Shown here piece by piece: positions 7,087-26,561 of a stretch of 64,000 nucleotides of DNA. The translations under genes and the position numbers were made by a program. Origin of the DNA: Candidatus Altiarchaeota archaeon (GTDB lineage Archaea > Altiarchaeota > Altiarchaeia > IMC4 > SCGC-AAA252-I15). The DNA lies in NCBI GenBank assembly GCA_043800705.1, contig JAZDMS010000001.1, forward strand, positions 1 through 64,000. The letters are read 5' to 3'. The first letter of the stretch is position 1; each line of letters opens with the position of its first letter. The notes below the pieces were generated by a model. That model made no database searches. It was given only the letters and a program-made list of their open reading frames with translations, and was not told where the DNA came from.

Positions 7087-7220
7087 TGGGCTGCATATAA
7101 GCGTTAAATGCCCCCTCATTTTAGAATCGGCAAATAATCCATTATTCGGCTGAAAATGCATTTTAATTGTATTTTTAGCTATTCCATGCTTTTTATCTGG
7201 GTTCACCTCATATCCTACCA

Positions 7221-8510: not shown

Positions 8511-8535
8511 TCGCAAGTTTTTATCCTGTGCGTAT

Positions 8536-9336: not shown

Positions 9337-9340
9337 CACG

Positions 9341-9502: not shown

Positions 9503-9503
9503 C

Positions 9504-9656: not shown

Positions 9657-9833
9657 GTCATGTTATTCGAATATTCGCTAAAAAGCTCGTCTTAGGGCTG
9701 GTCCTGGGGGCCCTTGTCGCCGCCTAGGGGGTCGGGAATATTGGGCTCCCGTTTTTTTTACGTGATGAAGAGTCCGTATGCCCCCCTTTGCCCTCCTTTC
9801 TGTATTTAAATACCCTAATTTATATAATTAATC

Positions 9834-10250
9834 ATGTTAAATGTCAAAGGTTTTATCTGCGTATCTATGGTAATGCTGTTGTCTCTTGGATGTATTAACG
9901 CTTCCGAGCCTGTTACGCCCACAACAACGGTCAAACAGATAATCGTCCCGCAACCCACCACGACGCTCCTTCCGAAGGAGGTGGTCGAAGACCGTCAAAC
10001 AGCCGCAAATGCACAAAAGACCGGGACCGACGAGTCCGCATGCGACGTCGTAAAAGACCAGCGGATGAGGGACATCTGCATAAAGAACATAGCTGTCAAA
10101 GAGAATAACATCGGGCTTTGCACCAAGATATCCACTCCCGACCTCGTAGACAACTGCTATTATAGGATTGCGACGGCCACGAAAGACTTGGCCCTCTGTG
10201 ATCGCATATCCAATGCCCAGGTAAAATCAATATGCCAAAAGGGCACGTAA
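9834..10250 (+). CDS. Lipoprotein with Cys-containing helical repeats
   Basis: LSLGC lipobox, Thr-rich linker, three C-x2-(I/V)-x7-C repeats. Confidence 0.75.
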   Translation: MLNVKGFICVSMVMLLSLGCINASEPVTPTTTVKQIIVPQPTTTLLPKEVVEDRQTAANAQKTGTDESACDVVKDQRMRDICIKNIAVKENNIGLCTKISTPDLVDNCYYRIATATKDLALCDRISNAQVKSICQKGT

Positions 10251-10456
10251 GTGCCCAGGCCTTATTTCTGGGATCGGTGACGTCATGGGCCAAATGGCCC
10301 ATGCAAGCTTTTATCCAGATCTTGTATAATGGTGGCTGAACCTAACCCCAACACGGGGGTCGATCCCTGTTAGGCGGCGCATCATAGCATATGCCTTTTT
10401 TAATGCATATATGCATAAGTAACATGTAGGGGTTTGGTGGCTGTGAGGTCACCTGA

Positions 10457-11320
10457 ATGAGAGACAATCGCTCAAAATACAGCTGGAAAACAAGCGACCC
10501 GAGAGATATTTCAGACGGACTGAAATCCAGGAAATTATACAATGAGACCCGCGGAACGAAGTTCCAAACTGAGACCAAGATAGTGAGGAATGATTCATCC
10601 GGCGGCGACTGCGGCTGCCTCCCGTCATCGAACGATAGCCTGGGTAAAGCAATGTCCTCCGGCGATGGGAAACGGAACGCCCAGAGCACCATGGGCCTTT
10701 TCGGAAGCTCTTCGTCGAAAGGCAGCCGGGCGTTCGGCGGATCCGGGATATTCGAGAAGCTCATGCGCGAGGCCCAGACGGATCCTGGAAGCCAGGCAAC
10801 AAAAAGTAGCAATCCGGCCTCCTGGATGCGGGGAGTCAACAGCAACGTATCTGACGATAAGCGCGGAGCTCTGGAGCGTCAATTGAAGCGTGTTGCCCAG
10901 TTGGAGGCCGCCTCTAAGCAATCACATCTTTCTGCGATACCTCCGGCGCCGATGGTTTCTTCGGCGCCGGTTTCGCAGGAATCCAATCAGGCACCTGCCC
11001 AACCGATGTATCCGGCTCCCCCGTCCCCGGCGCCGATGCACCTGATACAGCTTGCGCAGTCTTCTGCAAATCCGCCCCAGCTCTTGCAGCCTATGGGTGA
11101 GATAGCGGCCTCGCTGGCGTCTGGCCTGCAACCGGCCTCCTCAGGGTTTAATCCCGTGGGTTCTATGCTATCCAAGGTGGAAAACAGGGAAATCTTCATG
11201 TCTATGAGGACGAGCCTTGGTGAAATCCTCCTTGCGCATGAGTTGCCTGGGGATGTGGCTGAAAAGCTGAGGAAGATGGCTAGAGACCTGTCCGAACTCG
11301 ACCGGCAGCTTGCTCCTTGA
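10457..11320 (+). CDS. Hypothetical protein, Pro/Ser-rich disordered with helical C-terminus
   Basis: Longest ORF in the gap; GAGGT upstream. Confidence 0.6.
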   Translation: MRDNRSKYSWKTSDPRDISDGLKSRKLYNETRGTKFQTETKIVRNDSSGGDCGCLPSSNDSLGKAMSSGDGKRNAQSTMGLFGSSSSKGSRAFGGSGIFEKLMREAQTDPGSQATKSSNPASWMRGVNSNVSDDKRGALERQLKRVAQLEAASKQSHLSAIPPAPMVSSAPVSQESNQAPAQPMYPAPPSPAPMHLIQLAQSSANPPQLLQPMGEIAASLASGLQPASSGFNPVGSMLSKVENREIFMSMRTSLGEILLAHELPGDVAEKLRKMARDLSELDRQLAP

Positions 11321-11321
11321 G

Positions 11322-11882
11322 TTATCTATGGATTACCTTGAGTAGGTCGGCCTTCGTTATGATGCCGACTGGCTTCCCATGCTCCTGCACGAGCACGGCG
11401 GAGTTGTGTTCAAGAAGGACCGATAGGACGGTCAGCGGCGTCTCAGGTTTAACGGTGGGGAACGCGTCTTCCATGTGCTCTGCAATCTCCTCCTTTGAAA
11501 GAGCCTTTGCGTCGAAGCCTTTGGTTATCAGCCCCATTATGGTCTTTTCCGTGAAGGAGCCGAGGATCTTGTCCCCGTCGAATACCGGCATCTGAGAAAC
11601 ATTGTGCTTTTTCATCTTCCCCGCCGCGTATTCGATGGAGGCAGTGTGTTGGATCCCCGTCACCTCCCTTGTCATTATCTCCTTGGCCTGGATCTCCTTG
11701 CTCCTCATCTCATCGAGGGCGGAGAATATCTGCGCGACCTTGCTGTATCTGGGGTCGACGGTGCCGGCCTCCAGCCTGGCGATGAGGCTCTGACTGACCT
11801 GTGATCTTTGTGCGAGATCGGTCTGGGTTAAACCAAGCCTCTTTCGAAGCTTGCCAATCTCCGTTATCGGCGGCAGCTGCAT
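11322..11882 (-). CDS. XRE-family HTH + CBS-pair transcriptional regulator
   Basis: LGLTQTDLAQRSQVSQSLIARLEAG..DPR HTH, two CBS domains; GGTGA SD before ATG 11882. Confidence 0.92.
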   Translation of the reverse strand: MQLPPITEIGKLRKRLGLTQTDLAQRSQVSQSLIARLEAGTVDPRYSKVAQIFSALDEMRSKEIQAKEIMTREVTGIQHTASIEYAAGKMKKHNVSQMPVFDGDKILGSFTEKTIMGLITKGFDAKALSKEEIAEHMEDAFPTVKPETPLTVLSVLLEHNSAVLVQEHGKPVGIITKADLLKVIHR

Positions 11883-11905
11883 CCAATCACCCCTAATTCT
11901 TTGTG

Positions 11906-12020
11906 GAATATGTGAGGTTGCATATTCTATGTAGCATATCCATATTCTATCCAGTATATAAACATTAATGTACATTGGCGATATGTGGGAATCATCGAGA
12001 ATATGCATTATGGCATAATT
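11906..12020. promoter_or_regulatory. Candidate operator GAATATG-N8-CATA(T/A)T(C/T), two copies in the divergent promoter region
   Basis: GAATATG tgaggttg CATATTC (11906-11927); GAATATG cattatgg CATAATT (11999-12020); extra half-site at 11941. Confidence 0.55.
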
Positions 12021-12061
12021 TTATTGTAAAGTATTTATATATGACTACAGAATGTCTATTT

Positions 12062-13561
12062 ATGGCAAAAACCCTAGCTGAAATCAACGAGAAGATAAGG
12101 AAAGGGGATGCCGTCGTAGTACGGGCCGACCAGATGCCTCGGATAGTCGCCGATAATGGCCCCAAGAAGGCTGCCCAAGAAGTAGACGTCGTCACCACGG
12201 GCACTTTCGGGGCTATGTGCAGCTCCGGTGCGATCCTTAACTTCGGCCACAGCAACCCGCCCATCAAGATGCAAAAAGTCTGGCTTAACGAAGTCGAAGC
12301 CTACGGCGGCCTTGCCGCCGTGGACGCATACATAGGGGCCACCGAACTGAGCTTGGATCGCGGGATGGAATACGGCGGAGGCCACGTAGTCGAGGACCTG
12401 ATTGCCGGCAGGCTGATTAGCCTGCGCACGAGCTCATATGGGACCGACTGTTATCCGACCCGGAAGATGGAGACGACCTTCACCCTCGAGGACCTCAACC
12501 AGGCCTACATGTTCAATCCCCGCAACGCCTATCAGCGATATAACGCTGCTGTAAACACAACCGACCGCAAGCTGCGGACCTATATGGGGACCCTTTTGCC
12601 CAGGGCAGGAAACATCAACTTCGCAGGAACGGGGGAGATCAGCCCCCTTTTGAACGACCCGAAGTACAGGAGCATAGGATTCGGGACGAAGATATTCCTT
12701 GGCGGGGCTGAGGGGAGGATAATAGGAGAAGGCACGCAGCATTCCCCCCAGACCGGTTTCGGAAACATCGCAGTCAAAGGCGAACTTAGGCAGATGGACA
12801 CCCAATACGTCAAGGGCGTGACGATACCGGACTATGGGACGAGCCTTATGCTCGGAATAGGCGTCCCTATCCCGATACTAGACGAGGAGATGGCGCAAAG
12901 CACCGCGATCACCAACGACCAGATCGAAACCAACCTTTTGGACTACGGCGTGGCAAGGACGGACCGGCCCACATTGAGGAAAGTCAGCTATAGCGAGCTG
13001 ATTTCCGGACGCGTTGAATTGATGGACAGAAGCGTAAAGTGCGCTCCGCTTTCGAGCTTCAAGATTGCGTATGAGATAATGGGCGAGCTTGCGCGCTGGA
13101 TAGATGAGAAACGGTTCTACTTCGCGGAGGGGGTCGAAAACCTGCCGGGTCAGAGGGTGTTCAAGCCGATGAAGGTGAAGAAGAAGATGCCTAACGTGGC
13201 TGAGGTGATGACTGCCAATGTGTTCACCGCCCGGGTTGACGATTCCCTCGAGGACGTGTCTTCGCTGATGGTGGGTAAGGGCGTGGACCAGATACCAGTC
13301 GTCGACGACCAGGGCATGGTTGCAGGCATCGTGACCTCCCTTGATTTCACAAAGGCAGTGGCCTCCAAGAAAAAGAGACTATCTGAGGTCATGACCCCCA
13401 AGGTCGTGACATCAAAGCCTTCAGAGCACATAGACGAGGTCTCTAGGCGGCTTGAGCGATATGGGTTCAATTCAACGCCGGTTGTCGACTCTGAGGGGAG
13501 GATCATCGGCATAATCACGGTCTCGGACATAAACAAGGCCTGGGGGAGGCTGGCAAAATGA
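12062..13561 (+). CDS. L-aspartate semialdehyde sulfurtransferase (DUF39+CBS, MA1821/MJ0100 family; homocysteine synthesis)
   Basis: VDVVTTGTFGAMCSSG, YGTDCYP, NPRNAYQRYN, C-terminal CBS pair. Confidence 0.93.
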   Translation: MAKTLAEINEKIRKGDAVVVRADQMPRIVADNGPKKAAQEVDVVTTGTFGAMCSSGAILNFGHSNPPIKMQKVWLNEVEAYGGLAAVDAYIGATELSLDRGMEYGGGHVVEDLIAGRLISLRTSSYGTDCYPTRKMETTFTLEDLNQAYMFNPRNAYQRYNAAVNTTDRKLRTYMGTLLPRAGNINFAGTGEISPLLNDPKYRSIGFGTKIFLGGAEGRIIGEGTQHSPQTGFGNIAVKGELRQMDTQYVKGVTIPDYGTSLMLGIGVPIPILDEEMAQSTAITNDQIETNLLDYGVARTDRPTLRKVSYSELISGRVELMDRSVKCAPLSSFKIAYEIMGELARWIDEKRFYFAEGVENLPGQRVFKPMKVKKKMPNVAEVMTANVFTARVDDSLEDVSSLMVGKGVDQIPVVDDQGMVAGIVTSLDFTKAVASKKKRLSEVMTPKVVTSKPSEHIDEVSRRLERYGFNSTPVVDSEGRIIGIITVSDINKAWGRLAK

Positions 13562-13953
13562 GGAAATACGTCATAAAATACCCTCCCGAGGCTGCGAATA
13601 AGCCCGTCTTGGCGGAGGCGATCCTCAAGACCGGAGTACTAGTCAACATCCTGATAACCGAGCCGGAGTACAAGACCGAAACACTCGTCATCTCCGTTGT
13701 CGGGGATGCGAAAGCCGAACGGAGATTCCTCGAACATCTCAGCAAGGAAGGCTTGGAGTCCGTGGAGCTGAAGGCCGAGGTATTGAGGGACAACGACCGG
13801 TGCGTCGACTGCTGCGCCTGCTTCGGCGTCTGCCCGACGAAGGCGATTTCTATAGTCGAGCGGAAGATGGTGCTCGACAACGACGAATGCATCAGATGCG
13901 GCGCCTGCGTCGAAGCGTGCCCGACCCGCGCCCTAAAACTGAAGGGTGGATAA
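13558..13953 (+). CDS. NIL-domain + 2x[4Fe-4S] ferredoxin (MA1822 family)
   Basis: VNILI segment and two CxxCxxCxxxCP motifs; ATGA-coupled. Confidence 0.9.
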   Translation: MRKYVIKYPPEAANKPVLAEAILKTGVLVNILITEPEYKTETLVISVVGDAKAERRFLEHLSKEGLESVELKAEVLRDNDRCVDCCACFGVCPTKAISIVERKMVLDNDECIRCGACVEACPTRALKLKGG

Positions 13954-13955
13954 AT

Positions 13956-14651
13956 GTGGCCCGTGTCGGCGGTTTAAAATTCAGGCTGGAGTACGGGCAT
14001 ACCCATTTGAACGTTAGCTCCGGCGTCGAATGCCGCGGATTGGCTTTGGAGGAACTCATCAAGCATTATTCCAGCCTCGTCGGGTACATTAACCTTGAAC
14101 CCGTATTCAAGGCCAGCTACGAGCCTGTGGCGGTATCAGAAGACGCTCCGGAGATTGTGCGGCTGATGGCGGGATGTGCGAAGGCCTGCGGGGTTGGGCC
14201 GATGGCCGCGGTTGCCGGCGCCTTCTCGGAGCTGGTTGGGGCGAGGATCGTCTCCGTCGGCGGGAAAGACGTCATAGTCGATAACGGGGGGGACATTTTC
14301 CTGAAGGCTGCGAAGAAGAAGGTCGTTGGCATACACTCCGGCCCGTCGGCGCTTTCGGACGAATTCGCCCTGGTCTTCGAGCCTAATGAAACCCCCTGTG
14401 GTGTCTGCACGAGTTCGGCGTCTGTCGGTCCTTCGATAAGCCTCGGAAAAGCCGATTCGGTGACCTGTGTCGCGGATTCCGCTGCGCTGGCCGATGCCGC
14501 AGCGTCTGCCGTGGGTAATCTTGTGTCCTCCGATGACCTAAAACCGGCATTCAAAAAGGCTGCAGTGATTCCCGGCCTACGCGGCGTCGTCGTAATAATG
14601 GGCGAGACTTTAGGCGCATGGGGGCGGCTTCCGAAGATCGTCCGCATTTGA
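13956..14651 (+). CDS. UPF0280/ApbE-like protein (COG2122, MA1715 family, sulfide assimilation)
   Basis: VGPMAAVAG, DNGGDI, CTSSASVGPSISLG.AD, ALADAAA; GTG start inferred. Confidence 0.88.
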   Translation: MARVGGLKFRLEYGHTHLNVSSGVECRGLALEELIKHYSSLVGYINLEPVFKASYEPVAVSEDAPEIVRLMAGCAKACGVGPMAAVAGAFSELVGARIVSVGGKDVIVDNGGDIFLKAAKKKVVGIHSGPSALSDEFALVFEPNETPCGVCTSSASVGPSISLGKADSVTCVADSAALADAAASAVGNLVSSDDLKPAFKKAAVIPGLRGVVVIMGETLGAWGRLPKIVRI

Positions 14652-14705
14652 GTGTTAATGGTCATTTTTAGCCTATTTAATTGATCAACTGCAAATAATT
14701 ATCGT

Positions 14706-17700
14706 ATGAGTCGCATCTTGTCAAAGAGTCTGTTCTTGCTATCTGTGGCTATTCTGGTACTGCTATTTTCCTCTGCTCTTTTCGTCTCCCCCGCGGATTC
14801 TCCGAAGATTTTTCCGACAGAGGATAAGGACAAGTATGCCGTGAACTTTTCAAGTTCATACGGCCAGAAACTGGTTAAAAACGTGGCTTCCGTTGATCTG
14901 GCGATGACCAACACAGTCAACCAGAACTTCGCCCAGTTCAGCGGGATTTTCATGTATTTTCTCCGATCAAGAGACCTTGACACCCACCACTACCTGATCC
15001 AGCTGATTGCACCCATCATATTCGAGGTCCTTCTCCCCCTCTATCTGCTTCTCATCATCCTGACTGCGATATACCTCACCTGGGGGGCCATCTCCCCGAA
15101 TATGCGCGCCCAAACGAAGGGTCAGCTCGAGAAGCTGATACTTGGAATGATCCTCTGCAGCATATCGCTGCCTATCTACGACATACTCATAGAGACGAAC
15201 AACTTCGTGGTCGATTCGGTCCTCAGCACGACGACGTCTGCCAGCGGCCCGCACTGGGAGGATCTGGTAGTTCCGGACTCGATCGTTGTAGCCCCCGCCC
15301 CTGATGAATGCCGTGAAAGCGCCTGGGAGGAACACGTACTCCATGATCCTTCTACGTGCGGTTTGTTGACGACTTGGGTCACGATGAATTCCGATCCATC
15401 CACCGGCCCAAAAAACAGGGACAACTACGGGGACACCTGGTCCCTTGCCATATTGAGCGACTCGAACGATATGTCTGTCAATAGACTCATATTCAAGCAG
15501 GTAGTGGACGGGCCCTATCCCTCCTTGCTCGTGCCCGCGAACTACGATCCGATAACAGGCCTCTTCTATTATCACAAGACCGGAGTCGCCCTGGGTGCGG
15601 GCATAATGGGGGCCTTTATGCTCCTTACAGGCGGGAAATTATCAGCCATCGCAGCACCCCTGTTTTGCATGCTGTTCACGATGATGATCATGCCCTATCT
15701 GGTGCTGGCGATTAGGTACGTCGTCGTCATAGCGTTCGGGATACTCTTCCCGTTCACGCTCTTCTGTATGTCTTTCGAGTTCACCAAATCGCTTGGCGAC
15801 AAGCTGCTCAAACAGACGCTCATGTGGATGTTCTTCCCAGCGGCAATGGCTTTGTTTACGGTCCTGTCCGTGGGGATCGCAAATGCCCCGGCGGGGGACT
15901 ATATGGTGAACGCGATAGCCGCCATAGCCGCATATTTCCTCATCGGCGCAGCACCGATGATGATAACCGGCATGATGGGGGTCGCCGGCGGCGTCATGCT
16001 GTATGCCGGACAGACGATGGCCAACCCCCGCCTTGTGTTCATGGCCAACATCCTCCAGGGCAACAGCGCGCAGTCCTTCACTCAGGCGGCCTATATGTCA
16101 AACCTCGCTCGCTCGAGGCTTGGCACGTCCGCCGATACAGCCAAGAAGTATCAGGACGGCATCTCCGATGGCATGCCTGCAAGCGCGGATGTGCAGCAGC
16201 CCCCTCCACCATATTCCGCAGCATACAAGGAGGCAATGGAATCAAGGAGCGGCGGCGGGGGGCAGTCCGGCTCAGGCGCATCACCCAGGGTCTATGGCGG
16301 GGAAACAAGGACTGTCGGCGAGTTGGGGGACGGGATCGGTTTCCTGGAGACTGCTAAGAGGGCTGCGTTTAGGGCGCCGGTCGCTGAAGGTACGACAAAA
16401 GACCAGATGACAGCCCAACAATGGTCTGGCGTCAGGTTCGCGGCTGCGGGAGGCTTCAAAAGCTTCGCAGGTGTGGGTTGGTACGCATACGGCATAGCAG
16501 GGAATCTATCGCCGAAGAAGCTGATGGCCCCGGCAGGATACATGCTCAGGGGACTGCTCAGGCAGAGCATAAGTGACTGGCCCATCGGAAAGACACTGTC
16601 AGGGATCGCAAACAAGATGACCGGGTACTGGCAAACAGATTCTGCAACCGGTGAAAATGTGTTTAACTATGGGTGGCAGAGCCAGGCGGGAATCATAAGG
16701 GACCTGTCAAAGAGCGCTGCAGACCTTTACAAGGGTAAAGAAGGCGGCGGCGCTCCCGGGTGGGCCAAGGCTGCGGCAACCGGCATAGGCCTGACGATGC
16801 CCCTGGCAGTCCTCGCCGCACCCGCGGCTCCCCTCTTAGGCTTGGCGATAGCCGGAGGCGCAGGTCTCGCGTTCTTGGGAGGCTCATTGGTGCTGAAGCC
16901 TGTCGGGGAGTGGCTGGCATCGACCAATGAGAAGGCGGCTGACGACAAGGCGGTCTCCGGCAGGATCCGTTCAGCTTCCAGGCTAAGGGGTGGAATAAGG
17001 TCGAAGCTTTCGAAGGAGGACGGATTGGACAAGGAAGGCGTATGGGGCAAGCTCAATGACGCCGAGAAGAAAACGTTCGGAGATGACGAGCCGACTGCGA
17101 TGGACCGGGCAAAGGCATTCTACGACGCCAAGACATCGCCCCTTCTGGACAAGGAAGACATATTCGGGATAGTGTCCTCTAATGACCCCGATGACGCGCG
17201 GAAGACGTCGTTCGGCTGGAGCGAAGGCATGGATCCGGCGGGACTGGAAGGCGTGAAGGACAAGGCAGGCAGGTACTACGCATCTGCAGTCACTGGGAGC
17301 CCCACAGAACTAAATGCGGACCTCTATACGCGGGATCCTGTTACTGGGCAGATCGGCCAGTCCGGCAGCAGGCAGGCCTACGACGAACGGCTCGGCGAGG
17401 CTGTGACGAAACTGCAGGCTGCTAGAGCGAACCCTGCCGATACGGCCGCGATCGAAGCCGCAGAACAGGGCGTTGAGGCCTCGAAGACGGAGCGCAGTAC
17501 AGCGTTCCAGGAGTCGGCAGGAAGGGAGTCGTCTGCTCGAAACAACTGGGACTATCTGGATTCAACAGGCAGGAAACGGCACAGGGACACCGCAAAGACA
17601 GAGCTTATGGCTGCGGGGCAACCGGTGACTGAAGCCAGCATCCAGGCACAGGCAAGGTATAATGCGTTCACCGAAGGCAAAGAGAACGTGTGGACGGCGG

Positions 17701-18983
17701 CCGGATCGGATGAACAGGTCAGAAAAGACGCGGTATGGGATTCGCTGACTCCTCAACAGAGGGATAGATATCTTTCCAGCGCGACCGGAACGGATGCGAC
17801 TGTGAAGGAGGCTGCAGCAAAGGATTCCGCATACTCAGATGTCAAAAATGATCCTTCAAAGCTTGATGGCGCAAAACAGATGCTTCTGGATGAACAGACG
17901 AAGGGCAAGTCAGAAGCCTTCGCCGCAGGTTTCTTCGGGACAAGGAGGGCGGGGAAAGCCAAGGAATTCTGGCAAGGTCCACAGTCAAGGCTGTCCAAGG
18001 AGAATAAGAACGATATGATCATCGCGGAATCGGAGGGGAAACACGATCTCGCCTCCCTGGCGTCGGCGCCCGCCGCGGAGCGGGAACCCCTTGAAAGGAG
18101 AGCGATGGAGAGGGCCTACCGCGAAGGACACGGCGTATGGGCGAGAATGAAAGGCAGCCCTGTAGGCAGGTTGATCAACTCAGCCAGGCCGAGTACCTAC
18201 GGCGAAAGGGATGCCGGGGCGGGTAAGGGCATTACAGAGTCAAGGGCTGGCAAGGTCGTCATGGCAGGCGGGATTGTGGGTTCCCTGATAGCCGGTCCGG
18301 CAGCCTTGTTGGTACCTCTCTCATATGACCGGGGGCGGGACAAGTATGAGCAGAAGGCACAGACGAGGGGGACTGTCGAATACGGCCGGGCGAGGAGGGC
18401 CGTCCGCCAGGAGCTGGACGGAGGATTCAAGATCAGCGCCGAACCGTCGGTCACCGGCGCCACTGAGATACGGAATAATGACGGCAAAACATATTCCCTC
18501 GAAGAGGATGGCATATACGTCTCAAATTCTCCCTGGGGCGGCGTAGGCAGAAGGAAGGCTACGGTGGCCGAAGGTGCTGCGGTCGGTCAGTGGTATCGCG
18601 AGAACAGGGGCTCGGGCGAGGCTATCGACTCGTTTGCCAGGGGCGATATAGGCATCGACGCAGCCAAAGAAGGCGGCATCCTTTCAGAGTTCGAAGGGGC
18701 CGGACTCGATGGATCTGGCTCTCCGACCGGTATGGTCGGCCTCAGGGCAGTCGATGAGCTGAGGGGGATCGTCCATGGGGGTAAGGCCCCGGACAAGCGT
18801 GCCGAAAAATTGCTTTTCTCTAATGGAACGGCATTGGGCAAACGGATATTGGGCAGGCTCGGTTCGGCTGACCGCAAGAAATTCGGTTATTCCAAAGGTT
18901 CATCCGCAGCGGAGAAGGATCGCGCACGGCTTAGGGCGGTTGAATACTTCATCAGAAAGATGAAGGGGGGCGGGACTCCATGA
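14706..18983 (+). CDS. Giant VirB6/TrbL-like polytopic membrane protein with long soluble tail (1425 aa)
   Basis: N-terminal ~450 aa multi-TM with ISP..R..K..L..L..GM and IRY......LFP......EFTKSLG; G/A-rich charged tail with Gly-rich hydrophobic hairpins. Confidence 0.65.
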   Translation: MSRILSKSLFLLSVAILVLLFSSALFVSPADSPKIFPTEDKDKYAVNFSSSYGQKLVKNVASVDLAMTNTVNQNFAQFSGIFMYFLRSRDLDTHHYLIQLIAPIIFEVLLPLYLLLIILTAIYLTWGAISPNMRAQTKGQLEKLILGMILCSISLPIYDILIETNNFVVDSVLSTTTSASGPHWEDLVVPDSIVVAPAPDECRESAWEEHVLHDPSTCGLLTTWVTMNSDPSTGPKNRDNYGDTWSLAILSDSNDMSVNRLIFKQVVDGPYPSLLVPANYDPITGLFYYHKTGVALGAGIMGAFMLLTGGKLSAIAAPLFCMLFTMMIMPYLVLAIRYVVVIAFGILFPFTLFCMSFEFTKSLGDKLLKQTLMWMFFPAAMALFTVLSVGIANAPAGDYMVNAIAAIAAYFLIGAAPMMITGMMGVAGGVMLYAGQTMANPRLVFMANILQGNSAQSFTQAAYMSNLARSRLGTSADTAKKYQDGISDGMPASADVQQPPPPYSAAYKEAMESRSGGGGQSGSGASPRVYGGETRTVGELGDGIGFLETAKRAAFRAPVAEGTTKDQMTAQQWSGVRFAAAGGFKSFAGVGWYAYGIAGNLSPKKLMAPAGYMLRGLLRQSISDWPIGKTLSGIANKMTGYWQTDSATGENVFNYGWQSQAGIIRDLSKSAADLYKGKEGGGAPGWAKAAATGIGLTMPLAVLAAPAAPLLGLAIAGGAGLAFLGGSLVLKPVGEWLASTNEKAADDKAVSGRIRSASRLRGGIRSKLSKEDGLDKEGVWGKLNDAEKKTFGDDEPTAMDRAKAFYDAKTSPLLDKEDIFGIVSSNDPDDARKTSFGWSEGMDPAGLEGVKDKAGRYYASAVTGSPTELNADLYTRDPVTGQIGQSGSRQAYDERLGEAVTKLQAARANPADTAAIEAAEQGVEASKTERSTAFQESAGRESSARNNWDYLDSTGRKRHRDTAKTELMAAGQPVTEASIQAQARYNAFTEGKENVWTAAGSDEQVRKDAVWDSLTPQQRDRYLSSATGTDATVKEAAAKDSAYSDVKNDPSKLDGAKQMLLDEQTKGKSEAFAAGFFGTRRAGKAKEFWQGPQSRLSKENKNDMIIAESEGKHDLASLASAPAAEREPLERRAMERAYREGHGVWARMKGSPVGRLINSARPSTYGERDAGAGKGITESRAGKVVMAGGIVGSLIAGPAALLVPLSYDRGRDKYEQKAQTRGTVEYGRARRAVRQELDGGFKISAEPSVTGATEIRNNDGKTYSLEEDGIYVSNSPWGGVGRRKATVAEGAAVGQWYRENRGSGEAIDSFARGDIGIDAAKEGGILSEFEGAGLDGSGSPTGMVGLRAVDELRGIVHGGKAPDKRAEKLLFSNGTALGKRILGRLGSADRKKFGYSKGSSAAEKDRARLRAVEYFIRKMKGGGTP

Positions 18984-21900
18984 GCTGCAAAAAGGCAAGA
19001 AATCTGAGGCTCGCATTTGCAGCGGTCGCGCTCTATCTAGCAATGACCGTCCTGCTTGCAGCCGTATCCGCCGACTCCAATGAGAATTGGATGATCGAGT
19101 GGACCGCCTGGCTACTTGAAGACGTCCTCCTCGCAGGCATCTTCCAGGCGATATATGAAAAAATGAGCATGGTCGTAATCTCGCCCATAATAGTGCTTAC
19201 CATGGCAAATCCGTGCGTATGGGCCCCCTCCGGTGCATGCGACTCATACGTGATCCATATCCCCTACGGGGACGTCACCTGGTCACAGCCCCTTGACCAG
19301 ACCATATCTATATTCAACGCCCGCCTGATAATGCTCTTGCAGATGATCTATGTTCTTGCGATCACCCTCGTCGGAATGTACCTGATCTTCATGGCGGGCT
19401 CTCCGCAGGGGAGAAATGTCGCAAAGGAGACGTTCATCCGCCTCATGATGGGGATGATACTGGTCTCTATGTCCCCTCTACTATTCCAGCTGTTCGGTGT
19501 AGATATCGTTCGGGGCGTCACAACAACCATCCTAAACGAAGCCTCGAGCAGGCCTGCGGGAATGGGGTTCATGGGGACCTTCTTCTCAGGCGTGAAATAC
19601 CTCTGCACTACGGCATGCTTCCTTTCCATCGGATTTTTCGTAGCCATCATCGTCGCATTCCGGTACTTCCTCGTATTCGTCGCGGCATGTTTCTTCCCCC
19701 TTACAATGTTCTTTTATTTCACTGACATACCCAATCCCCTGTTCTCGACAAGAGGCCTTGGGACCAGGATGCTCAGGGCCACGATACTGCTTTTCGTCGT
19801 CCAGCTCATACAGGTAATGTTCCTGGCAATGGGGTTGGGCATAGCATCCCACAGCGGCGGCAACATATTCGGCGAGTTCCTCCTTATGATTGCATGTTAC
19901 GCCGGAATTCTGGCATCGCCGTTGGTCGGCATGCAGCTCCTCGCCTGGGTAGGGACCGTCATCCACGTAGCCTCCGGAAGGCCAGGATCGCCTATGTCCC
20001 GGTTCATATCGACCTGGATGCGGACCGGCAGGATCTCATCCGCGCTTACGACGGCAAGCGGACAATACATGATCGGGCACAACCTGAACGTCGGCGGAGG
20101 AAGCCCGGGCTCGACTGCGAGCGAGGGATGGGGCACGTCATCGAGGGGTATTTTTTCGATGGGCGAAAGCGTCGACCAAAGATATCCGCACACAGGCCGC
20201 GTCGGGCCGGCAGGCATCAGGGACTCCAGCATGCTGTTCGGAGCTGCGGGAACGGCAGGCCAAGCATCGGCAGGTAAGCAACCGTCCGGGGGCGTACAAA
20301 CACCTTCGGGACCGGCAACAGGCGCCGGATTTGCCGCGGCCAGGGCGCAAAGGCCATCAGGCGCTTTCGCATCAGGCGGCCGCACGGGGTCCGCAGTCGC
20401 CGGACCGTCGGCATCGATGTCTCCCCAAGGTCCTGGGGAAGCTCATGGGCCGATGTCGCCGGGTACGAATGTGGTCCGTCAAGCGCCAAGATCCGGCACC
20501 CAAGTAATGGGAGACGATGGGATGGGAGGATCGAACCTGTCAATCTCGTCGAGTCAATCGTCCAGGGATGCGTCGAAGTCATCGACTACCCAGGGCGGCG
20601 GGCTCAGGAAGACTAAGGAACAAGGCAGGGCCGGGGCGCCGCTCTCGCCGCTTCGCACTGGTGCTGGGCCCCAGGCAATGGCAGGATCGAATGTTCCGGG
20701 AACTGCGTCTTCCGGGAAACCGTCCGCATCCGGTGTCAAGATGCAGACCCAGGGGTCAGGGAACTTGGGAGCTCCAAAACTGCCTCAAATGGGTCCAGGC
20801 GCCCCTGGCGGCAGGACCCCACAAGGGTCGGGAGTAATGGGGGGCCACGAACCGTCGCAGGCCTACTCCCAAACCGCCACACCCGCACAAACTCAGCAAG
20901 GCCAAGAAGACAGTATGGAGAAGCCGGAACAACCGAGTGCCTCTCCCCAGAAACAACAAGGCCAAGGAGGCAGTTTGGCTAGGCGGGAACAACCGAGCAC
21001 CCCTCCCCAGACACTACAAGGCCAGGGAAGCATTTTGACCCGACAGGAACGCGAAGCTAAGAGGTTCGGACAAGAACAGGCGCAGGCAGCGCAGCGTCAA
21101 GTCCAAAAAGAAGCGAGAGAGGACCAATTCCTGGAACAGAAGAGACAGAGATACGACCAGCTGCTTGAAGCCGATAACAAAACCGCAGCGGCTTCGGCCG
21201 CACGGAGCCTGGATAAACAGCTGGATTCCGCGAAGCAGACATTCGAAAAGAGAGGAATAAAATTCGACAAGGATGCCGCGAGGGACAGCCTTCTCAGCAT
21301 GGCGCCGCCCGGAAAAGTCGACGAGTTCCTGAAGACAGGCGCGGCGGAAGGACTAATAGACGGTGCGCTGTCGTCGAAGAATTTGATGACCAATGAAAGC
21401 AACGAGGACCCCAATGGATACATCCTTGAGCAGGCGCAGAAAAGAGGCTACAAACCTCCTACTGCCGCCCAAGGCGGTCCGGATGCTGCTGGTGGACGGT
21501 ACTCGTCTGCAGAAGCGAGGTTTGCCGCTGCGGGCGGTGCGAAGTATGCGCAGACCAGGAAGGCCGGCCAACTCACTCGCGCAGCCTCGATACGCGAACA
21601 GTCACCCGGCGCCGGTCGGGGCGGCGGCATCGGCCAGGGAGGACCAACGGAAGGCGCAGCAGCAACAGGGCCGTCATCGCATACTAACAGAGGCGACCTT
21701 GCGGAATGGCAGACGAAAAATAAGGCACTCACCGAAGACGGAGCCAAAAAAGTAATAGACGACCTCAAAGACAAAGGATACGCCAGCGGCGATCAGATCA
21801 AGGGCCTAGCCCTCGGCATACTCGGCGGCACCCTCGATCCCGAAACCTCCGAGGAAGGCCTCAAGGCGCTCAAGAAAGGCCTCGACGATCCCCACACAAG

Positions 21901-24900
21901 GGACGCCTCATCCATCGCATTAAGCTGGCTCGGACAAAACTCAACAGACCCTGAAATACAAAAGGCCGCAAGGCAGGCGATTTCAGGGGTAATGGTCGCT
22001 CCCTCGAGAACGACATTGGCTGAAGAAGCTGCCTGGGCCAGGCGAGGGGCAGATGCCGAAAGAACAACCGCTCCAGCAGCTAGCAGGGCACAGTATGCGG
22101 GTCCCGGACAGGTCGGACAGCTCACCCGCGCGGGTGAGATGCGGGAACAACGGCCAGGCACAGCATATGGAGGTGAAACGCGCGCCGCAAGAGGAAGAGG
22201 ATTAAAAGGGATAGGTTCACGGGTCACTGGAGCGTTCCTCCGCATCGGACGGGGCATAAGGAGCGCATACCTGCAGAGTACGAACATGTACTCCTGGTCA
22301 GACAGCGTCACCGCCCAATGGAATTCGCAATATCAGACACCCCGCCATGTAATAAAAGCCGATGATGTGATACTCAGATTGGACTCTCAAATGGACGTCC
22401 CTGAGAGCCAAATTAGCGCCTTCTCAGGCCTGATAGTGAACGGCCAATTGGATGACTTCGATACTGCAATGGGTATAAGGGCGTTGACACGCAACACCAG
22501 CGGTTATTCTCCGGTTTGGCCAAACCATATTCCCTCCGCTCTTGCACTCGGTCGGATAGCCCTTGAAGCAAACAATCCGGACGTAAAAAGAAATGCAATG
22601 AGCGTGCTCCTGGAAAAACCATACCTTCTCGATCAGATTGTGCAACATGGGTCGCCTCAACTGCGGGATGCGGCTATGGGGATAATACGGGATAATATCG
22701 GTCAAATGATGCAGACTGATGTGAGAAAATCAGGTTATCTGGACAAGGACTCGATATCCCTGGTCAAGGACCTGGCAATTTACGGCAAATCCCCGGAAGA
22801 AAAGGCATCCGCCATCGGAAAACTCGTGGAAGGGATGTACGACACCGCCCATGCTGACTCATATAAATCAAATTTTTATTCTTCCCATGCATTGGGCAAG
22901 GTAATCCTAAAGGGAGACGACAGCGTACGCAACGTGGCGTTAACCCACCTGTTAGATGCATCCAAGGACCATTCGCTCATCAAAATAGGGGATGACGCCT
23001 ACGCCTCCAGGAGCAGGTATGCATTCAACAGTCTGGCCGAAACCTACCTCGAAAGCCCGGAGGACGTCAAGGCTTTGATTCGTCCCGCCATTTCGGCGGT
23101 TATAACCCAATCCGGCTTGGACGTATCCGACACCCTCCTCGCATGGGATAAGAATGTCGGAATGGAAAGGAACGAGGATGGAAGCTTTAAAACCGCAGAT
23201 TTGGGATATGGCTCCTGTCTTAACGTCCTGTCCTCATTGAATGCCGAAAGGCCTGGGGCGGCGAAATATCTCCATGAGAAATACGGGCTCACGGTATTCG
23301 GCCGCTACACGTCCAAAACCCTCATGCACATCTACGATCAGGACCAGCGGATAGCAGCCGGCCAGGAAGCGCCTAAAAATTTGGGTCTTATCGTTTTGCC
23401 CCAATCGGACTGGAACGGAGCCTTTTTATCAGATGCCCACACCTTGGAAAAACTGGTGCTGGACGGGGGTGCAAGGATCGTGGAGGCGGAGACAGCGATG
23501 GATCTGGGCAGGGCTTTGATAACCCACACGAAGAAATTCGGGCCGATGCCTTTCTTCGTGGGGGGCGGCCATGGGACCCCCAACGGCGTGCAAATCGGCG
23601 AAAACACGGTTCTTGACATACTCAACATCGAGAATAGCCACAGCCTAGCAAGACCCGAAAAGCAGAGGCGTCTGTTCACGGACAATCCAACGATCATACT
23701 CGCATCATGCTCAACCGGGGCAGATGTGAAAACATCATCCGAAACCAGGCCTGGATTCGGGCAGACTCTATCTCAGAAACTCGAAGGAATAAACGCAAAG
23801 GTCATAGCTCCGGACAGGCCGACCGGTCTCCAGGATATCTCCTTTAGAAGAGAGGGCGATAGGCTCGAATTTGAGGTTAAGTACTCAACTGATGCTCGGA
23901 AGGAATTCGTCGGCGGAAAGGCCCTCCCCTCGAGCCCGGATGCCATCAAGAAATACCTGCTTTCGAATCCGAACGTCTCCGACTCGGCGCGGATAGGTCT
24001 AGGGGAACGTCTCCTCGGGAGGCGGCTTAACGAGAACGAGCGCACCGCCGTCCTCGAAGCGCACGAGTTGCCAGGAGCTATCGGCGAAATCCATGCAGGC
24101 GACGCCGAAGTCTACGGCAAAGGCCGGCGCCTTTTAAGTACGTTCAGGGAAGTGAACCTGGGGGCGGGTATGAGCCAAGAGGATGCCAGGGCTAAGGCCA
24201 GGCGGGAGGCTCAGCTGATTTTGGATGCGGGAATAGCTGGGAAGGCGGCAGCCGAGGGCATGCCACGGGCTATTGTGGACATTAACCAAAAGCTAGAACA
24301 TCTACGGAATTGGGACGATAAAAAAGCAACAGAAGCGGAAAAAGATTCAATCGGCTTTGGGAAAGGCTATTCCCCATTTATCGACGCCATGAGGGAAATC
24401 CACGGGGACAAAGCCGCTGGCCGGATCATCGAAATAGCGGAAAAAATTAGGGCTGAGGGAAGAAGGCTACAGGATATGGATGGGGAAGCAGGCCAAGGCG
24501 GTAATTTTAACGGTTATCTGAATTTGGCGATGAATACCGGTATAGATAAGTTTGACTTCAATGCAATAAGCGAAATAAAGGACCGACAGGAGAGGTCAAG
24601 GTATATCATCGAAAAGTCAAAAAACGTGAAAGACAATATACTAAGGCGTGACGAATGGGCTTCCATATTGATAAATGCAGGCGATGATATGCACCGGCAA
24701 ATTGAATTCTCCGAAAAATTGAATAGACAAGACCCGACGAAGAATGTGTTTATCTCTCGCGTTGATGCCATGGGCTCATCGTCTATCGTCCTGGAACACC
24801 TTTTCGGATACCAGCTGGAGCGTATCCCGAAAGTTGAGTCCCCGGACGGTAAGGCACGAACCACTTCACAGCCCGAACCAAAACCTGGGACTTATACCCC

Positions 24901-26008
24901 CCCTAACGGCGGCAGTCCCGGAAGGCCGTTTACTCAGGATATGCAGCCGGCACAAGTCTCAACCGGCGAAAGAAGACCTTCCGGGGCAGTTCTGCCAGGG
25001 CATTTGGCAGATATACAGTTGACTCCGGCTGATTATCCGGAAAGGGGGGGAATGGACGATCAAACGTACCGGCGGGCTGTGGAGAAAGATACTACTATAA
25101 AATTGTTGCGAATGGACATCGGCGCAAAATATGACCGCGAATTCAGGGAAAACTGGAATGCGTTCATGGACCAGTCGACGGTCGAAGACCTTTTGAAGGC
25201 CAGAAAAACCCTTATCCAAATTGCCGGGGAAAAATATCCCAACCCGGAAAAACTTGCGATTCTGAAGAGAATAATACCTGCGGCAAATAAAACCGCTGCG
25301 GCGCCAGTCCAGACCCGGCCAGTTTCCGTTTCGGAAACGATTGGCAAGCAGTCAGCGGAAACAGGGCCAATCGGAGCGAAGACTCCACCTATTCCAGCCT
25401 CTGAGCCTTCTCCGAACGCTGAAATCAAGCCCGCCGGACCAGTTCCTCTAATCGAAGAGCTGCCCGTGCGAGATGTATTAGCCTCAGCCAAGCCAGCCGC
25501 CTCCGACTCGTCAGTCTTCGCATCCCGCAGGCAGGAGGCCGCGAAAGACCTGATAGGCGCGGCAACTGTCAAGGGGACAATATCAGCCGTCCTGGAAGGC
25601 GGAAAGGTTGAACTGACAGACGAGAAAGGCTCAAAGAGGCTGGAAAGTGCAGACGGCCTCCGGCTGCTTAAAAGGGTACTCAGACCCGGCTCCGCAATGG
25701 ATGAGCCTGATGAGGAACTCGTCGAGGCGGAGATTGTCACATGCAAGCGTTGCGGCAGATTGTTCAAAAAAACAGGGGTCTTGGCTGACGCGAAGAAGAG
25801 ACTCGACAGGAAGAGGAAGCACGCCCAGAAGTTGGAGGCAAAGGGGGACTTGAAGGGCGATTCGATCAAGGACAAGGGCTCAGCAGGCAAGGGGGAAGGA
25901 ACCGGAGGTTCAGCGGCCTCTAAAGGCGACGGCCTCAAGGATGTGGGTGGTCCTTCGAAGGGAGTCGACGGATTGAAGGGCGCTGGAGGTAAGAAGGATG
26001 AGCGATGA
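18980..26008 (+). CDS. Giant VirB6/TrbL-like membrane protein with multidomain tail (HEAT-like repeats, caspase-fold peptidase-like domain, Zn half-site; 2342 aa)
   Basis: Paralogous TM region to the upstream gene, ATGA-coupled; GHG (23567-23575) and IILASCSTG (Cys 23708); CKRC at 25742. Confidence 0.65.
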   Translation: MSCKKARNLRLAFAAVALYLAMTVLLAAVSADSNENWMIEWTAWLLEDVLLAGIFQAIYEKMSMVVISPIIVLTMANPCVWAPSGACDSYVIHIPYGDVTWSQPLDQTISIFNARLIMLLQMIYVLAITLVGMYLIFMAGSPQGRNVAKETFIRLMMGMILVSMSPLLFQLFGVDIVRGVTTTILNEASSRPAGMGFMGTFFSGVKYLCTTACFLSIGFFVAIIVAFRYFLVFVAACFFPLTMFFYFTDIPNPLFSTRGLGTRMLRATILLFVVQLIQVMFLAMGLGIASHSGGNIFGEFLLMIACYAGILASPLVGMQLLAWVGTVIHVASGRPGSPMSRFISTWMRTGRISSALTTASGQYMIGHNLNVGGGSPGSTASEGWGTSSRGIFSMGESVDQRYPHTGRVGPAGIRDSSMLFGAAGTAGQASAGKQPSGGVQTPSGPATGAGFAAARAQRPSGAFASGGRTGSAVAGPSASMSPQGPGEAHGPMSPGTNVVRQAPRSGTQVMGDDGMGGSNLSISSSQSSRDASKSSTTQGGGLRKTKEQGRAGAPLSPLRTGAGPQAMAGSNVPGTASSGKPSASGVKMQTQGSGNLGAPKLPQMGPGAPGGRTPQGSGVMGGHEPSQAYSQTATPAQTQQGQEDSMEKPEQPSASPQKQQGQGGSLARREQPSTPPQTLQGQGSILTRQEREAKRFGQEQAQAAQRQVQKEAREDQFLEQKRQRYDQLLEADNKTAAASAARSLDKQLDSAKQTFEKRGIKFDKDAARDSLLSMAPPGKVDEFLKTGAAEGLIDGALSSKNLMTNESNEDPNGYILEQAQKRGYKPPTAAQGGPDAAGGRYSSAEARFAAAGGAKYAQTRKAGQLTRAASIREQSPGAGRGGGIGQGGPTEGAAATGPSSHTNRGDLAEWQTKNKALTEDGAKKVIDDLKDKGYASGDQIKGLALGILGGTLDPETSEEGLKALKKGLDDPHTRDASSIALSWLGQNSTDPEIQKAARQAISGVMVAPSRTTLAEEAAWARRGADAERTTAPAASRAQYAGPGQVGQLTRAGEMREQRPGTAYGGETRAARGRGLKGIGSRVTGAFLRIGRGIRSAYLQSTNMYSWSDSVTAQWNSQYQTPRHVIKADDVILRLDSQMDVPESQISAFSGLIVNGQLDDFDTAMGIRALTRNTSGYSPVWPNHIPSALALGRIALEANNPDVKRNAMSVLLEKPYLLDQIVQHGSPQLRDAAMGIIRDNIGQMMQTDVRKSGYLDKDSISLVKDLAIYGKSPEEKASAIGKLVEGMYDTAHADSYKSNFYSSHALGKVILKGDDSVRNVALTHLLDASKDHSLIKIGDDAYASRSRYAFNSLAETYLESPEDVKALIRPAISAVITQSGLDVSDTLLAWDKNVGMERNEDGSFKTADLGYGSCLNVLSSLNAERPGAAKYLHEKYGLTVFGRYTSKTLMHIYDQDQRIAAGQEAPKNLGLIVLPQSDWNGAFLSDAHTLEKLVLDGGARIVEAETAMDLGRALITHTKKFGPMPFFVGGGHGTPNGVQIGENTVLDILNIENSHSLARPEKQRRLFTDNPTIILASCSTGADVKTSSETRPGFGQTLSQKLEGINAKVIAPDRPTGLQDISFRREGDRLEFEVKYSTDARKEFVGGKALPSSPDAIKKYLLSNPNVSDSARIGLGERLLGRRLNENERTAVLEAHELPGAIGEIHAGDAEVYGKGRRLLSTFREVNLGAGMSQEDARAKARREAQLILDAGIAGKAAAEGMPRAIVDINQKLEHLRNWDDKKATEAEKDSIGFGKGYSPFIDAMREIHGDKAAGRIIEIAEKIRAEGRRLQDMDGEAGQGGNFNGYLNLAMNTGIDKFDFNAISEIKDRQERSRYIIEKSKNVKDNILRRDEWASILINAGDDMHRQIEFSEKLNRQDPTKNVFISRVDAMGSSSIVLEHLFGYQLERIPKVESPDGKARTTSQPEPKPGTYTPPNGGSPGRPFTQDMQPAQVSTGERRPSGAVLPGHLADIQLTPADYPERGGMDDQTYRRAVEKDTTIKLLRMDIGAKYDREFRENWNAFMDQSTVEDLLKARKTLIQIAGEKYPNPEKLAILKRIIPAANKTAAAPVQTRPVSVSETIGKQSAETGPIGAKTPPIPASEPSPNAEIKPAGPVPLIEELPVRDVLASAKPAASDSSVFASRRQEAAKDLIGAATVKGTISAVLEGGKVELTDEKGSKRLESADGLRLLKRVLRPGSAMDEPDEELVEAEIVTCKRCGRLFKKTGVLADAKKRLDRKRKHAQKLEAKGDLKGDSIKDKGSAGKGEGTGGSAASKGDGLKDVGGPSKGVDGLKGAGGKKDER
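20867..21046 (+). repeat. 60-bp in-frame tandem repeat (two good copies plus one degenerate)
   Basis: EQPSASPQKQQGQGGSLARR / EQPSTPPQTLQGQGSILTRQ starting at 20927 and 20987. Confidence 0.85.
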
Positions 26009-26561
26009 CCTGTGTCCGGAATGCGTGGAAGAGCTGAAGCAGATGGCCCTAGCCAAGGCGGCTGCAGCGGGCGGGGACAAGAACGCCCAGAAGGAGGTCG
26101 AGGCATTGTCTTCGGCGGGGGTCCCCGAGGACGTCGACGATGAGGTCAGATCCATGCTCAACTCTCTCATAAGTAAGAGGAACGATATCGCCGCCACCGG
26201 CAGATACAGGGACCTCTCCTACATAGACTCGATAATCGGGACTGCAAGGTCCCACTACCTTGGGAAGGAATACGACCTCGCCCTGGACAACATAAGCTCG
26301 GGAGTGCCAGAAGTCAACCACGCCTACAACGTCGCCATCTACCAGGTTCAGGCGGAGTCAAAGCTGAAGGAGGTCGAGGACCTCGCCCAGACGATGCGGG
26401 CGCAGCCGGCGGCAAAGACAGGGATGGGTGAGGGTGCCGAAGTAAAAAACGTGGAATCCCTTGTCGAGGACGCGAAGAAGCTCATCTCAGACGGCAAGTT
26501 CAAGGAAGCGTCGGAGAAACTCTCGTCAGCCGACACGCAGAAGACGGAAAAGAAGAAATGA
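25998..26561 (+). CDS. Helical protein with N-terminal CxxC; possibly the frameshifted continuation of the upstream giant protein
   Basis: MSDDLCPEC..., GGAGGT SD at 25985-25990, overlaps the upstream stop. Confidence 0.7.
   Translation: MSDDLCPECVEELKQMALAKAAAAGGDKNAQKEVEALSSAGVPEDVDDEVRSMLNSLISKRNDIAATGRYRDLSYIDSIIGTARSHYLGKEYDLALDNISSGVPEVNHAYNVAIYQVQAESKLKEVEDLAQTMRAQPAAKTGMGEGAEVKNVESLVEDAKKLISDGKFKEASEKLSSADTQKTEKKK

Follow-up and report, generated by a model that had tools for sequence, protein, structure and literature searches.

Introduction

Tce1 (PA0256), a Pseudomonas aeruginosa protein loaded into Hcp of the H3 type VI secretion system (T6SS) and recently proposed to be a T6SS cysteine protease, contains the domain DUF4347, as stated in an excerpt of PMC8262886. 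According to excerpts of PMC13323088, its residues His186 and Cys240 align with the dyad of TcdB, and in its smaller relative Tce2 the C115S exchange abolishes yeast toxicity. Extended VirB6 proteins, such as VirB6-3 and VirB6-4 of Anaplasma and other Rickettsiales and TraG of the F plasmid and of SXT, join a polytopic VirB6 module to a very long hydrophilic tail and occur as several paralogues per genome, often in tandem; cleavage and release of these tails has been proposed for Rickettsiales, and the excerpted text of PMC7648143 describes the tails as repeat-rich and reports no protease domain in them. Here we describe P0001, a 2342-aa protein encoded in a 64,000-nucleotide stretch of a Candidatus Altiarchaeota archaeon genome (contig JAZDMS010000001.1 of assembly GCA_043800705.1, positions 1 to 64,000; hereafter the window), in which a VirB6-like membrane module is followed by a long tail carrying a predicted cysteine protease domain of the caspase-hemoglobinase fold.

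Tce1 was the closest solved structure to this domain, ranking first with both Foldseek and VIA-align, and likewise bears a His...Cys dyad on a central sheet. Neither protein has a signal peptide, and each is associated with a secretion machine of the contact-dependent kind. Unlike Tce1, P0001 has no DUF4347 match, its family adds a helical cap with a nearly invariant Arg-Tyr pair together with an invariant Asp and Glu, and the domain is covalently part of a VirB6-like protein; furthermore, whereas Tce1 belongs to Pseudomonas, the family was found in candidate phyla radiation (CPR) bacteria, DPANN archaea and this archaeon. The CHAT proteases, which are cytoplasmic and regulated, share the dyad placement, as seen in the SAVED-CHAT protease (8tl0, Z 9.7) of the cyclic-oligonucleotide-based antiphage signaling system (CBASS) and in the Craspase partner 7zoq (Z 6.5), but P0001 had no PF12770 match at E ≤ 10 and no PADLOC defence match, and neither a sensor domain nor a neighbourhood of defence genes is present. 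The C80 cysteine protease domains (CPDs) of RtxA and the large clostridial toxins have the same fold and are internal domains of giant multi-module proteins, but they scored lower than Tce1 and CHAT, the C80 model gave no match, most relatives of the P0001 domain lie outside giants, and activation by inositol hexakisphosphate (InsP6) would not be expected in archaea. With the extended VirB6 proteins P0001 shares the layout of module and tail as well as the tandem paralogues, and it differs from them in being archaeal and in the predicted cysteine protease in its tail.

A predicted caspase-hemoglobinase fold in the tail of P0001

The preliminary description of this DNA had proposed a His-Cys peptidase-like domain with a caspase fold inside a VirB6-like giant protein. 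All of the motifs that it quoted were located in the open reading frame (ORF) 18980-26008: LIVLPQSDWNGAF starts at aa 1470 (nt 23387), FFVGGGHGTP, containing His1531 (codon 23570), at aa 1525, TIILASCSTG, containing Cys1577 (codon 23708), at aa 1571, and FGQTLSQ and KVIAP at aa 1593 and 1607, respectively; the His and Cys are spaced by 46 residues, as had been stated. The residues quoted were right, but the start given for them (23230) was one base out of frame, the true frame running from 23231, which does not affect the claim.

When 1.84 billion representative proteins were searched exhaustively with HMMER, using aa 1400-1680 as the query, a family of homologues came to light, and an alignment of the query with 51 of the 150 listed family proteins (A1) was used to model aa 1400-1680 with AlphaFold2. 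The model had a mean predicted local distance difference test score (pLDDT) of 88.8 and a predicted template modelling score of 0.86, and its elements are ordered as a three-helix cap followed by b1-a-b2-a-b3(His)-small hairpin-a-b4(Cys)-a-b5-b6, with the late strands antiparallel. Each putative catalytic residue follows a strand, in agreement with the preliminary description: strand 124-130 precedes model His132-Gly133 (His1531-Gly1532), located right after b3, and strand 167-176 precedes model Cys178 (Cys1577), located right after b4. The cap helices span model residues 3-24, 28-36 and 46-60 (pLDDT of the block, 94-98), and most alignments to Protein Data Bank (PDB) structures begin only at model residue 67, i.e., behind the cap.

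The model was then compared with 48,161 PDB chains using VIA-align, and the best 50 rows were inspected, their class being assigned by entry titles. The top match was Tce1 of the P. aeruginosa H3-T6SS (9qpe_G; Z 10.0; root mean square deviation [rmsd], 3.2 Å; 156 aligned residues; 19% identity), and the second was the activated SAVED-CHAT protease (8tl0_A; Z 9.7; rmsd, 3.2 Å; 153 aligned residues). Rows 1 to 18 were all caspase-fold proteins, with Z values from 10.0 down to 6.8, as were about 36 of the best 50 rows, and the lower matches included clostripain and other C11 peptidases, legumain, the RtxA CPD, caspase-4, Dronc, glycosylphosphatidylinositol (GPI) transamidase, separase, Raptor and MALT1. 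Foldseek, the check proposed beforehand, also returned Tce1 at the top (E 2.3e-5), followed by caspase-1, the RtxA CPD and CED-3 at around 1e-3. The likeness to CPDs that had been pointed out was borne out in part, as the Vibrio cholerae RtxA CPD (3fzy_A) and the TcdA CPD (3ho6_A) were matched with Z values of 7.3 and 6.0, but the nearest described relatives of the family are DUF4347/Tce1 and CHAT, and not the CPDs of the multifunctional-autoprocessing repeats-in-toxin (MARTX) type.

It is the coherence of this match list that carries the argument for a caspase fold. The model displays an alpha/beta/alpha sandwich with a central sheet, a likeness to solved members of clan CD, and a conserved His(-Gly) and Cys that come after strands 3 and 4, respectively, and we predict with high confidence that aa ~1405-1650 adopt the clan CD caspase-hemoglobinase fold. 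Judging by the strand order of this fold, His1531 and Cys1577 would lie next to each other in space. By fold topology and alignment ranges, they would be equivalent to His186 and Cys240 of Tce1.

The two motifs may also be read in another manner, as parts of a thiol esterase of the alpha/beta-hydrolase type in which HG would form the oxyanion motif and A-S-C-S-T-G the nucleophile elbow, since they resemble the HG and Sm-x-Nu-x-Sm patterns in sequence. No alpha/beta-hydrolase was present among the best 50 fold matches, however, and Cys178 of the model is followed by a loop, with no helix until residue 194, which is unlike an elbow. This candidate is hardly credible and was rejected.

Invariant polar residues in a family of soluble proteins

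The HMMER search yielded 1054 representative proteins at E ≤ 0.001, 462 of them at E ≤ 1e-10, and the homology covers a region from about aa 1350 or 1411 to aa 1647. For the analysis of conservation, a hidden Markov model (HMM) was built from the query columns of A1, and the retrieved family proteins were aligned to it, 9 fragment rows of split matches being gapped at the catalytic columns. Conservation of the His and Cys had been named in advance as one point on which the proposal could fail. Both residues were invariant, as were Asp1477 and Glu1502, each of the four occupying its column in 155 of 155 ungapped rows, and Gly1532 was a Gly in 154 of the 155. In the cap, Arg1442 was conserved in 153 of 158 ungapped rows and Tyr1443 in 152 of 156. 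The overall identity of the family members to the query is 30-42%, and invariance of four polar residues at this level of divergence indicates an active-site signature. The alignment thus supports His1531 and Cys1577 as the putative catalytic dyad.

We also considered whether the domain could be a catalytically dead, caspase-like binding scaffold, as Raptor or c-FLIP is. Both proteins appeared among the fold matches (Z 6.9 and 5.7, respectively), and Tce1 was nontoxic in yeast (excerpt of PMC13323088); nevertheless, His, Cys, Asp and Glu conserved in 155 of 155 rows at 30-42% identity is the pattern of an active site, which makes a dead scaffold most unlikely.

Among 153 members examined, 150 were devoid of any hydrophobic segment and would be soluble proteins. 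The family members have a median length of 517 aa and bear the domain C-terminally. Ankyrin or HEAT repeats are present in two of the members from Micrarchaeota. Word-indexed homologue searches returned 2 proteins for the domain at near lengths and 5 at shorter lengths, and none for the N-terminal module of P0001. No match to the domain was found by tblastn in 72,556 plasmids and 50,697 phages, and the family member P0029 gave only a chance match to a tetratricopeptide repeat among PDB sequences.

The family has no Pfam model of its own. Of 52 members scanned with DUF4347 (PF14252), one passed the gathering score (P0029, 25.0 versus 24.6 bits) and three scored at E ≤ 0.01, and a language-model search with a typical member pointed to a DUF4347 cluster as a weak lead (0.82). 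The DUF4347 model found nothing at this locus when run against the genome encoding P0001. On these grounds we regard the domain as belonging to a new family that stands beside DUF4347 within clan CD and is not a member of DUF4347, C80, CHAT or C14. Our search of the open-access literature did not find a description of this protease family or of an archaeal extended VirB6 protein. What appears to be new is thus a predicted clan CD family, encountered here for the first time within an extended VirB6-like protein of an archaeon, and its recognition would tie DUF4347/Tce1 to a much wider group.

The distribution of the family was sampled, rather than counted exhaustively, by scanning species-representative genomes with two peptide patterns. 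By record label, the 35 loci recovered belong to Micrarchaeota-type archaea (16), CPR bacteria/Patescibacteria (11), records named only "bacterium" (2) and records with Proteobacteria-like names (6). Three metagenome-assembled genomes in the last group (G042, G043 and G041, with loci L011, L032 and L034) are labelled Gammaproteobacteria, Pseudomonadota or Pseudomonadales, and their genomes measure 1.0-1.7 Mb; relatives in the class of G041 have genomes of 0.7-1.8 Mb (20 of 301 listed). PF14252 sequences were absent from these three genomes and from the 301 genomes of that class. The proteobacterial labels of the three are doubtful, and the organisms are probably CPR bacteria. With 1054 cluster representatives and four invariant polar residues, this large family, concentrated in CPR bacteria and DPANN archaea, offers a predicted enzyme that is open to testing in organisms whose dependence on hosts is, to our knowledge, still poorly understood.

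A tethered peptidase as the preferred proposal

We consider the chances somewhat better than even that aa ~1405-1650 form an intact and active clan CD cysteine peptidase, which acts mainly in trans and is tethered to the VirB6-like anchor. In this enzyme, the C-terminal end of strand 4 would supply the nucleophile (Cys1577) and the end of strand 3 the general base (His1531-Gly1532). Asp1477 and Glu1502 may orient the His and/or line an acidic S1 pocket; on the pattern of caspase, metacaspase and legumain structures, a basic residue would then be preferred at P1. The helical cap with its Arg-Tyr pair probably gates or completes the substrate site. The basic job of the domain would be to act in trans and cut other proteins, whether it serves as an effector (tethered or delivered) or regulates a secretion-type machine. 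Trans cutting is taken as the basic job because nearly all of the relatives are free-standing soluble enzymes, and cutting of its own tail would be a secondary possibility. What the analysis shows is the predicted fold, the invariance of the residues, the distribution of the family, the VirB6-like anchor and the variability of the tail, and we infer catalysis, specificity and substrates in this proposal, as well as the membrane side on which the domain lies. As for the last, Arg-rich residues follow the last hydrophobic segment of the module, and this charge distribution, taken together with the topology of Agrobacterium tumefaciens VirB6 as quoted in an excerpt of PMC7648143, suggests that the tail is cytoplasmic.

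Several results weigh against this explanation. At the sequence level, aa 1378-1677 had no Pfam match at E ≤ 10, the DUF4347, CHAT, C80 and C14 models included, the query domain had no match in NCBIfam or PADLOC, a phmmer search of PDB sequences gave only a chance match (E 0.83), and a PDB profile search with alignment A2 gave 0 matches at E ≤ 10. At the structural level, the Foldseek scores are weak (TM 0.3-0.55), with caspases mixed with RecA-like folds in the lower rows, and only two chains reached a VIA-align Z of at least 8, best Z values of 7-8 being common in models without a true relative. Tce1 itself, the best match, is without demonstrated protease activity in the excerpted text of PMC13323088. 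With regard to an effector role, the neighbours of 15 CPR/DPANN family loci (72 ORFs) were housekeeping genes, and neither secretion genes nor a conserved partner was present among them. Finally, a cytoplasmic tail is at odds with the extended VirB6 tails of Anaplasma, which are surface exposed according to the same excerpt of PMC7648143.

A VirB6-like membrane module

The N-terminal 370 residues of P0001 contain 6-7 hydrophobic segments by hydropathy. An AlphaFold model of the module, built from 15 orthologous modules, is a helical bundle with a pLDDT of 75.4. Its best fold match was chain F of 7o3v, TrwI/VirB6 of the R388 type IV secretion system (T4SS) stalk (Z 10.0; rmsd, 4.7; 223 of 261 residues aligned), followed by DotA of the Legionella Dot/Icm system (9ngy; Z 8.5; 221 aligned) and by a third row at 5.4, and for helical bundles a Z below about 13 may reflect a common arrangement. 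The term "VirB6-like" in the preliminary description is in keeping with this ranking. Compared with TrwI and DotA, the module shares only about 10% identity, and it had no match to the TrbL/VirB6 Pfam models, of which PF19590 finds nothing in the genome. PF18895 (T4SS_pilin) matched P0001 at a subthreshold level (E 0.006-0.008), and one orthologous module passed that model (28.9 versus 26.6 bits); a language-model search of the module gave TrbL_3/T4SS_pilin clusters as a lead (0.91).

The adjacent upstream protein, P0003, has a module that is paralogous to that of P0001 (25% identity over 176 aa, E 4e-8). No VirB4, VirB2 or VirB3 gene is present at the P0001 locus in the window, and no ATPase gene lies beside P0001. 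On another contig of the same genome (C15), two copies of the module are found a few kilobases from genes for a T4SS_pilin protein (E 1.2e-9), an ATPase of the VirB4 type (P-loop_TraG, E 3e-25; also AAA_10 and DUF87) and a PrgI-like protein (E 1.3e-7). Taken together, fold and paralogue context support the label VirB6-like for the modelled module.

The T4SS-like cluster of C15 (L075, G000:C15:52000-71897) occupies about 2228-17352 on the minus strand and continues with four ORFs (421, 700, 170 and 247 aa) and with a giant of 2025 aa that has no family match.

In the order to which this archaeon belongs, the module was found in 39 of 41 genomes sampled, many of which have several copies, often in tandem, in proteins of about 300 to >2400 aa. 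Archaea of this order thus carry proteins resembling the extended VirB6 of Rickettsiales, with variable tails. Up to 15 module matches occur per genome, comprising tandem genes of ~300-400 aa and giants of >1500 aa (e.g., G040:C3:18989-23665 and G026:C1:1246578-1249200).

The pilin-related signals bear on a further explanation, namely that the tail domain is not a hydrolase but a transpeptidase or ligase of the GPI transamidase or legumain/OaAEP1 type, acting on pilin-like or surface proteins in a T4SS-like apparatus to process them or link them together. The fold matches of the domain include OaAEP1 (Z 7.0) and GPI transamidase (7.0 and 5.9), P0001 has a T4SS_pilin-like hairpin, and the genome has a T4SS_pilin gene beside VirB4- and PrgI-like genes. 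These fold matches are, however, no better than those to hydrolases, and the CPR/DPANN members, which have no signal peptides and lie among housekeeping genes, show nothing that links them to pilin genes; a transpeptidase or ligase is therefore very unlikely.

A variable tail with exchangeable modules

P0001 was compared by BLASTP with 11 full-length VirB6-like giants of relatives and with the own-genome paralogue P0003, and with P0003 the alignment was confined to the membrane module. Ten of the 11 giants have the membrane module of P0001 without its protease domain, and 9 of these showed no other tail match. The remaining giant, the same-genus orthologue P0002 (2410 aa), has the protease domain, and its module shares 44% identity with that of P0001 over 379 aa. 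Between the two orthologues, conservation in the tail is confined to aa 1304-1541 of P0001, and P0002 keeps the Cys after a longer insert. The segment at aa 1690-1759 of P0001, directly behind the protease domain, recurs at residues 778-845 of a giant at L081 (G020:C46) with 41% identity over 70 aa (E 2e-9). That giant comes from another genus, and its tail is otherwise unrelated to that of P0001. While the module is present in 39 of the 41 genomes, the protease domain was detected in only 4 of the 41, and this difference, along with the nonhomologous tails, indicated that the protease is one of several swappable tail modules.

Three copies of the domain are encoded in the genome itself, those of P0001, P0127 and P0156. 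P0127, of 3271 aa and without a hydrophobic segment, is encoded on contig C2 (L048, 8057-17872, minus strand). P0156, of 695 aa with the domain at its C terminus, is encoded on contig C29 (L049, 6228-8315, plus strand), and in this protein His-Gly is replaced by His-Ser and FGRY by FAKY.

The tail contains only 4 Cys residues in its 1972 aa (after aa 370), and this scarcity, along with the invariance of the dyad in homologues, marks the His/Cys pattern as more than a product of chance. In 100-aa windows across aa 401-700, the Gly/Ser/Pro/Gln/Ala/Thr fraction is 0.69-0.73.

These tail data raise the alternative that the domain is an autoprocessing protease like the CPDs of MARTX, TcdA and TcdB, as the preliminary description had envisaged. 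A cut by the domain in its own chain, probably at the conserved aa ~1304-1400, would free the C-terminal ~900 aa, including the protease, from the anchor for release or transfer. The Asp...His...Cys spacing of P0001 (54/46) resembles that of Asp587, His653 and Cys698 in TcdB; the RtxA and TcdA CPDs are among the fold matches, and the single tail region in which P0001 and P0002 are conserved includes the stretch upstream of the domain. Autoprocessing would also accord with the tail cleavage and release proposed for Rickettsiales (PMC7648143). On the other hand, 150 of 153 family members lack a hydrophobic segment, which rules out release from a membrane anchor as the conserved job of the family, and the CPDs rank below Tce1, CHAT, C11 and legumain as fold matches. 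Moreover, the C80 model did not match, no cleavage site can be named, and InsP6-type activation is not foreseen in an archaeon. Self-release is thus a possible but rather unlikely account of the domain compared with a tethered peptidase acting on other proteins.

A broader proposal, which we hold to be unlikely, is that the module family of this order constitutes a polymorphic delivery platform, in which a conserved, channel-forming anchor bears swappable C-terminal cargo and the caspase-like domain of this genus would be either a built-in release protease or a delivered enzyme. The domain would cut off the tail, which would then travel through a T4SS-like machine into neighbouring cells. If this were true, the cutting of extended VirB6 tails, long proposed, would gain its first intrinsic mechanism, and there would be a hint that the huge CPR/DPANN family of the domain is made up of contact-delivered proteases of episymbionts. 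For one extended VirB6-like tail there is now a concrete predicted route to being cut or to acting.

Gene layout and other features of the window

The positions of P0001, its parts and the adjoining genes are listed in Table 1.

Table 1. Location of P0001, its predicted domains and key codons, and the flanking genes in the window
Feature	Position (nt)	Strand	Basis
Giant protein P0001, 2342 aa: VirB6-like membrane module, then 1972-aa tail	18980..26008	+	ORF list and translation
N-terminal polytopic membrane module, aa 1-370, VirB6/TrbL-like, with T4SS_pilin-like helical hairpin at aa 119-172	18980..20089	+	Hydropathy, AlphaFold2 model, fold match
Low-complexity linker rich in Gly/Ser/Pro/Gln/Ala/Thr, about aa 371-700	20090..21079	+	Composition
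Predicted caspase-hemoglobinase-fold (clan CD-like) His-Cys domain, aa ~1405-1650	23192..23929	+	AlphaFold2 model, fold matches, homology
Three-helix cap before the sheet, aa ~1402-1460, family-specific, with FGRY motif	23183..23359	+	Model helices
Arg1442-Tyr1443 (FGRY motif of the cap)	23303-23308	+	HMM alignment
Invariant Asp1477, codon in the SDWNGAF loop that follows strand 1	23408..23410	+	HMM alignment
Glu1502 codon, end of strand 2, invariant	23483..23485	+	HMM alignment
Codons of His1531-Gly1532, the proposed general base, right behind strand 3	23570..23575	+	Alignment and model
Codon of Cys1577, the proposed nucleophile, right behind strand 4	23708..23710	+	Alignment and model
Separate 70-aa module, aa 1690-1759, directly behind the protease domain	24047..24256	+	Recurs in a giant of another genus
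Upstream gene P0003, 1425 aa, second giant with a VirB6-like module	14706..18983	+	ORF list; paralogous module
Downstream ORF P0157, 187 aa, hydrophilic, N-terminal CxxC	25998..26561	+	ORF list

The end of P0003 (18983) overlaps the start of P0001 (18980) by 4 nt, and P0157 overlaps the end of P0001 by 11 nt. Neither P0003 nor P0157 had a match in Pfam or NCBIfam (significant family matches in the case of P0157). The GC content is 0.52-0.63 across 14-26 kb, and the flanks are similar, so that the region bears no sign of recent transfer.

A single CxxC (CKRC, aa 2255-2258) is located near the C-terminal end of P0001, and another (CPEC, aa 6-9) opens P0157, the two falling within 25742-26050 of the window. 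They may be the two halves of an interprotein zinc site, and NCBIfam gave only a weak match to a CxxC family (E 0.024).

Elsewhere in the window, two large plus-strand ORFs, at 941-3265 (774 aa) and 52203-55058 (951 aa), had no Pfam family at E ≤ 0.001. At 4217-6623 on the plus strand, MtrA-like, MtrH-like and cobalamin-independent methyltransferase-like genes lie in a row, which suggests methyl-transfer metabolism in this archaeon.

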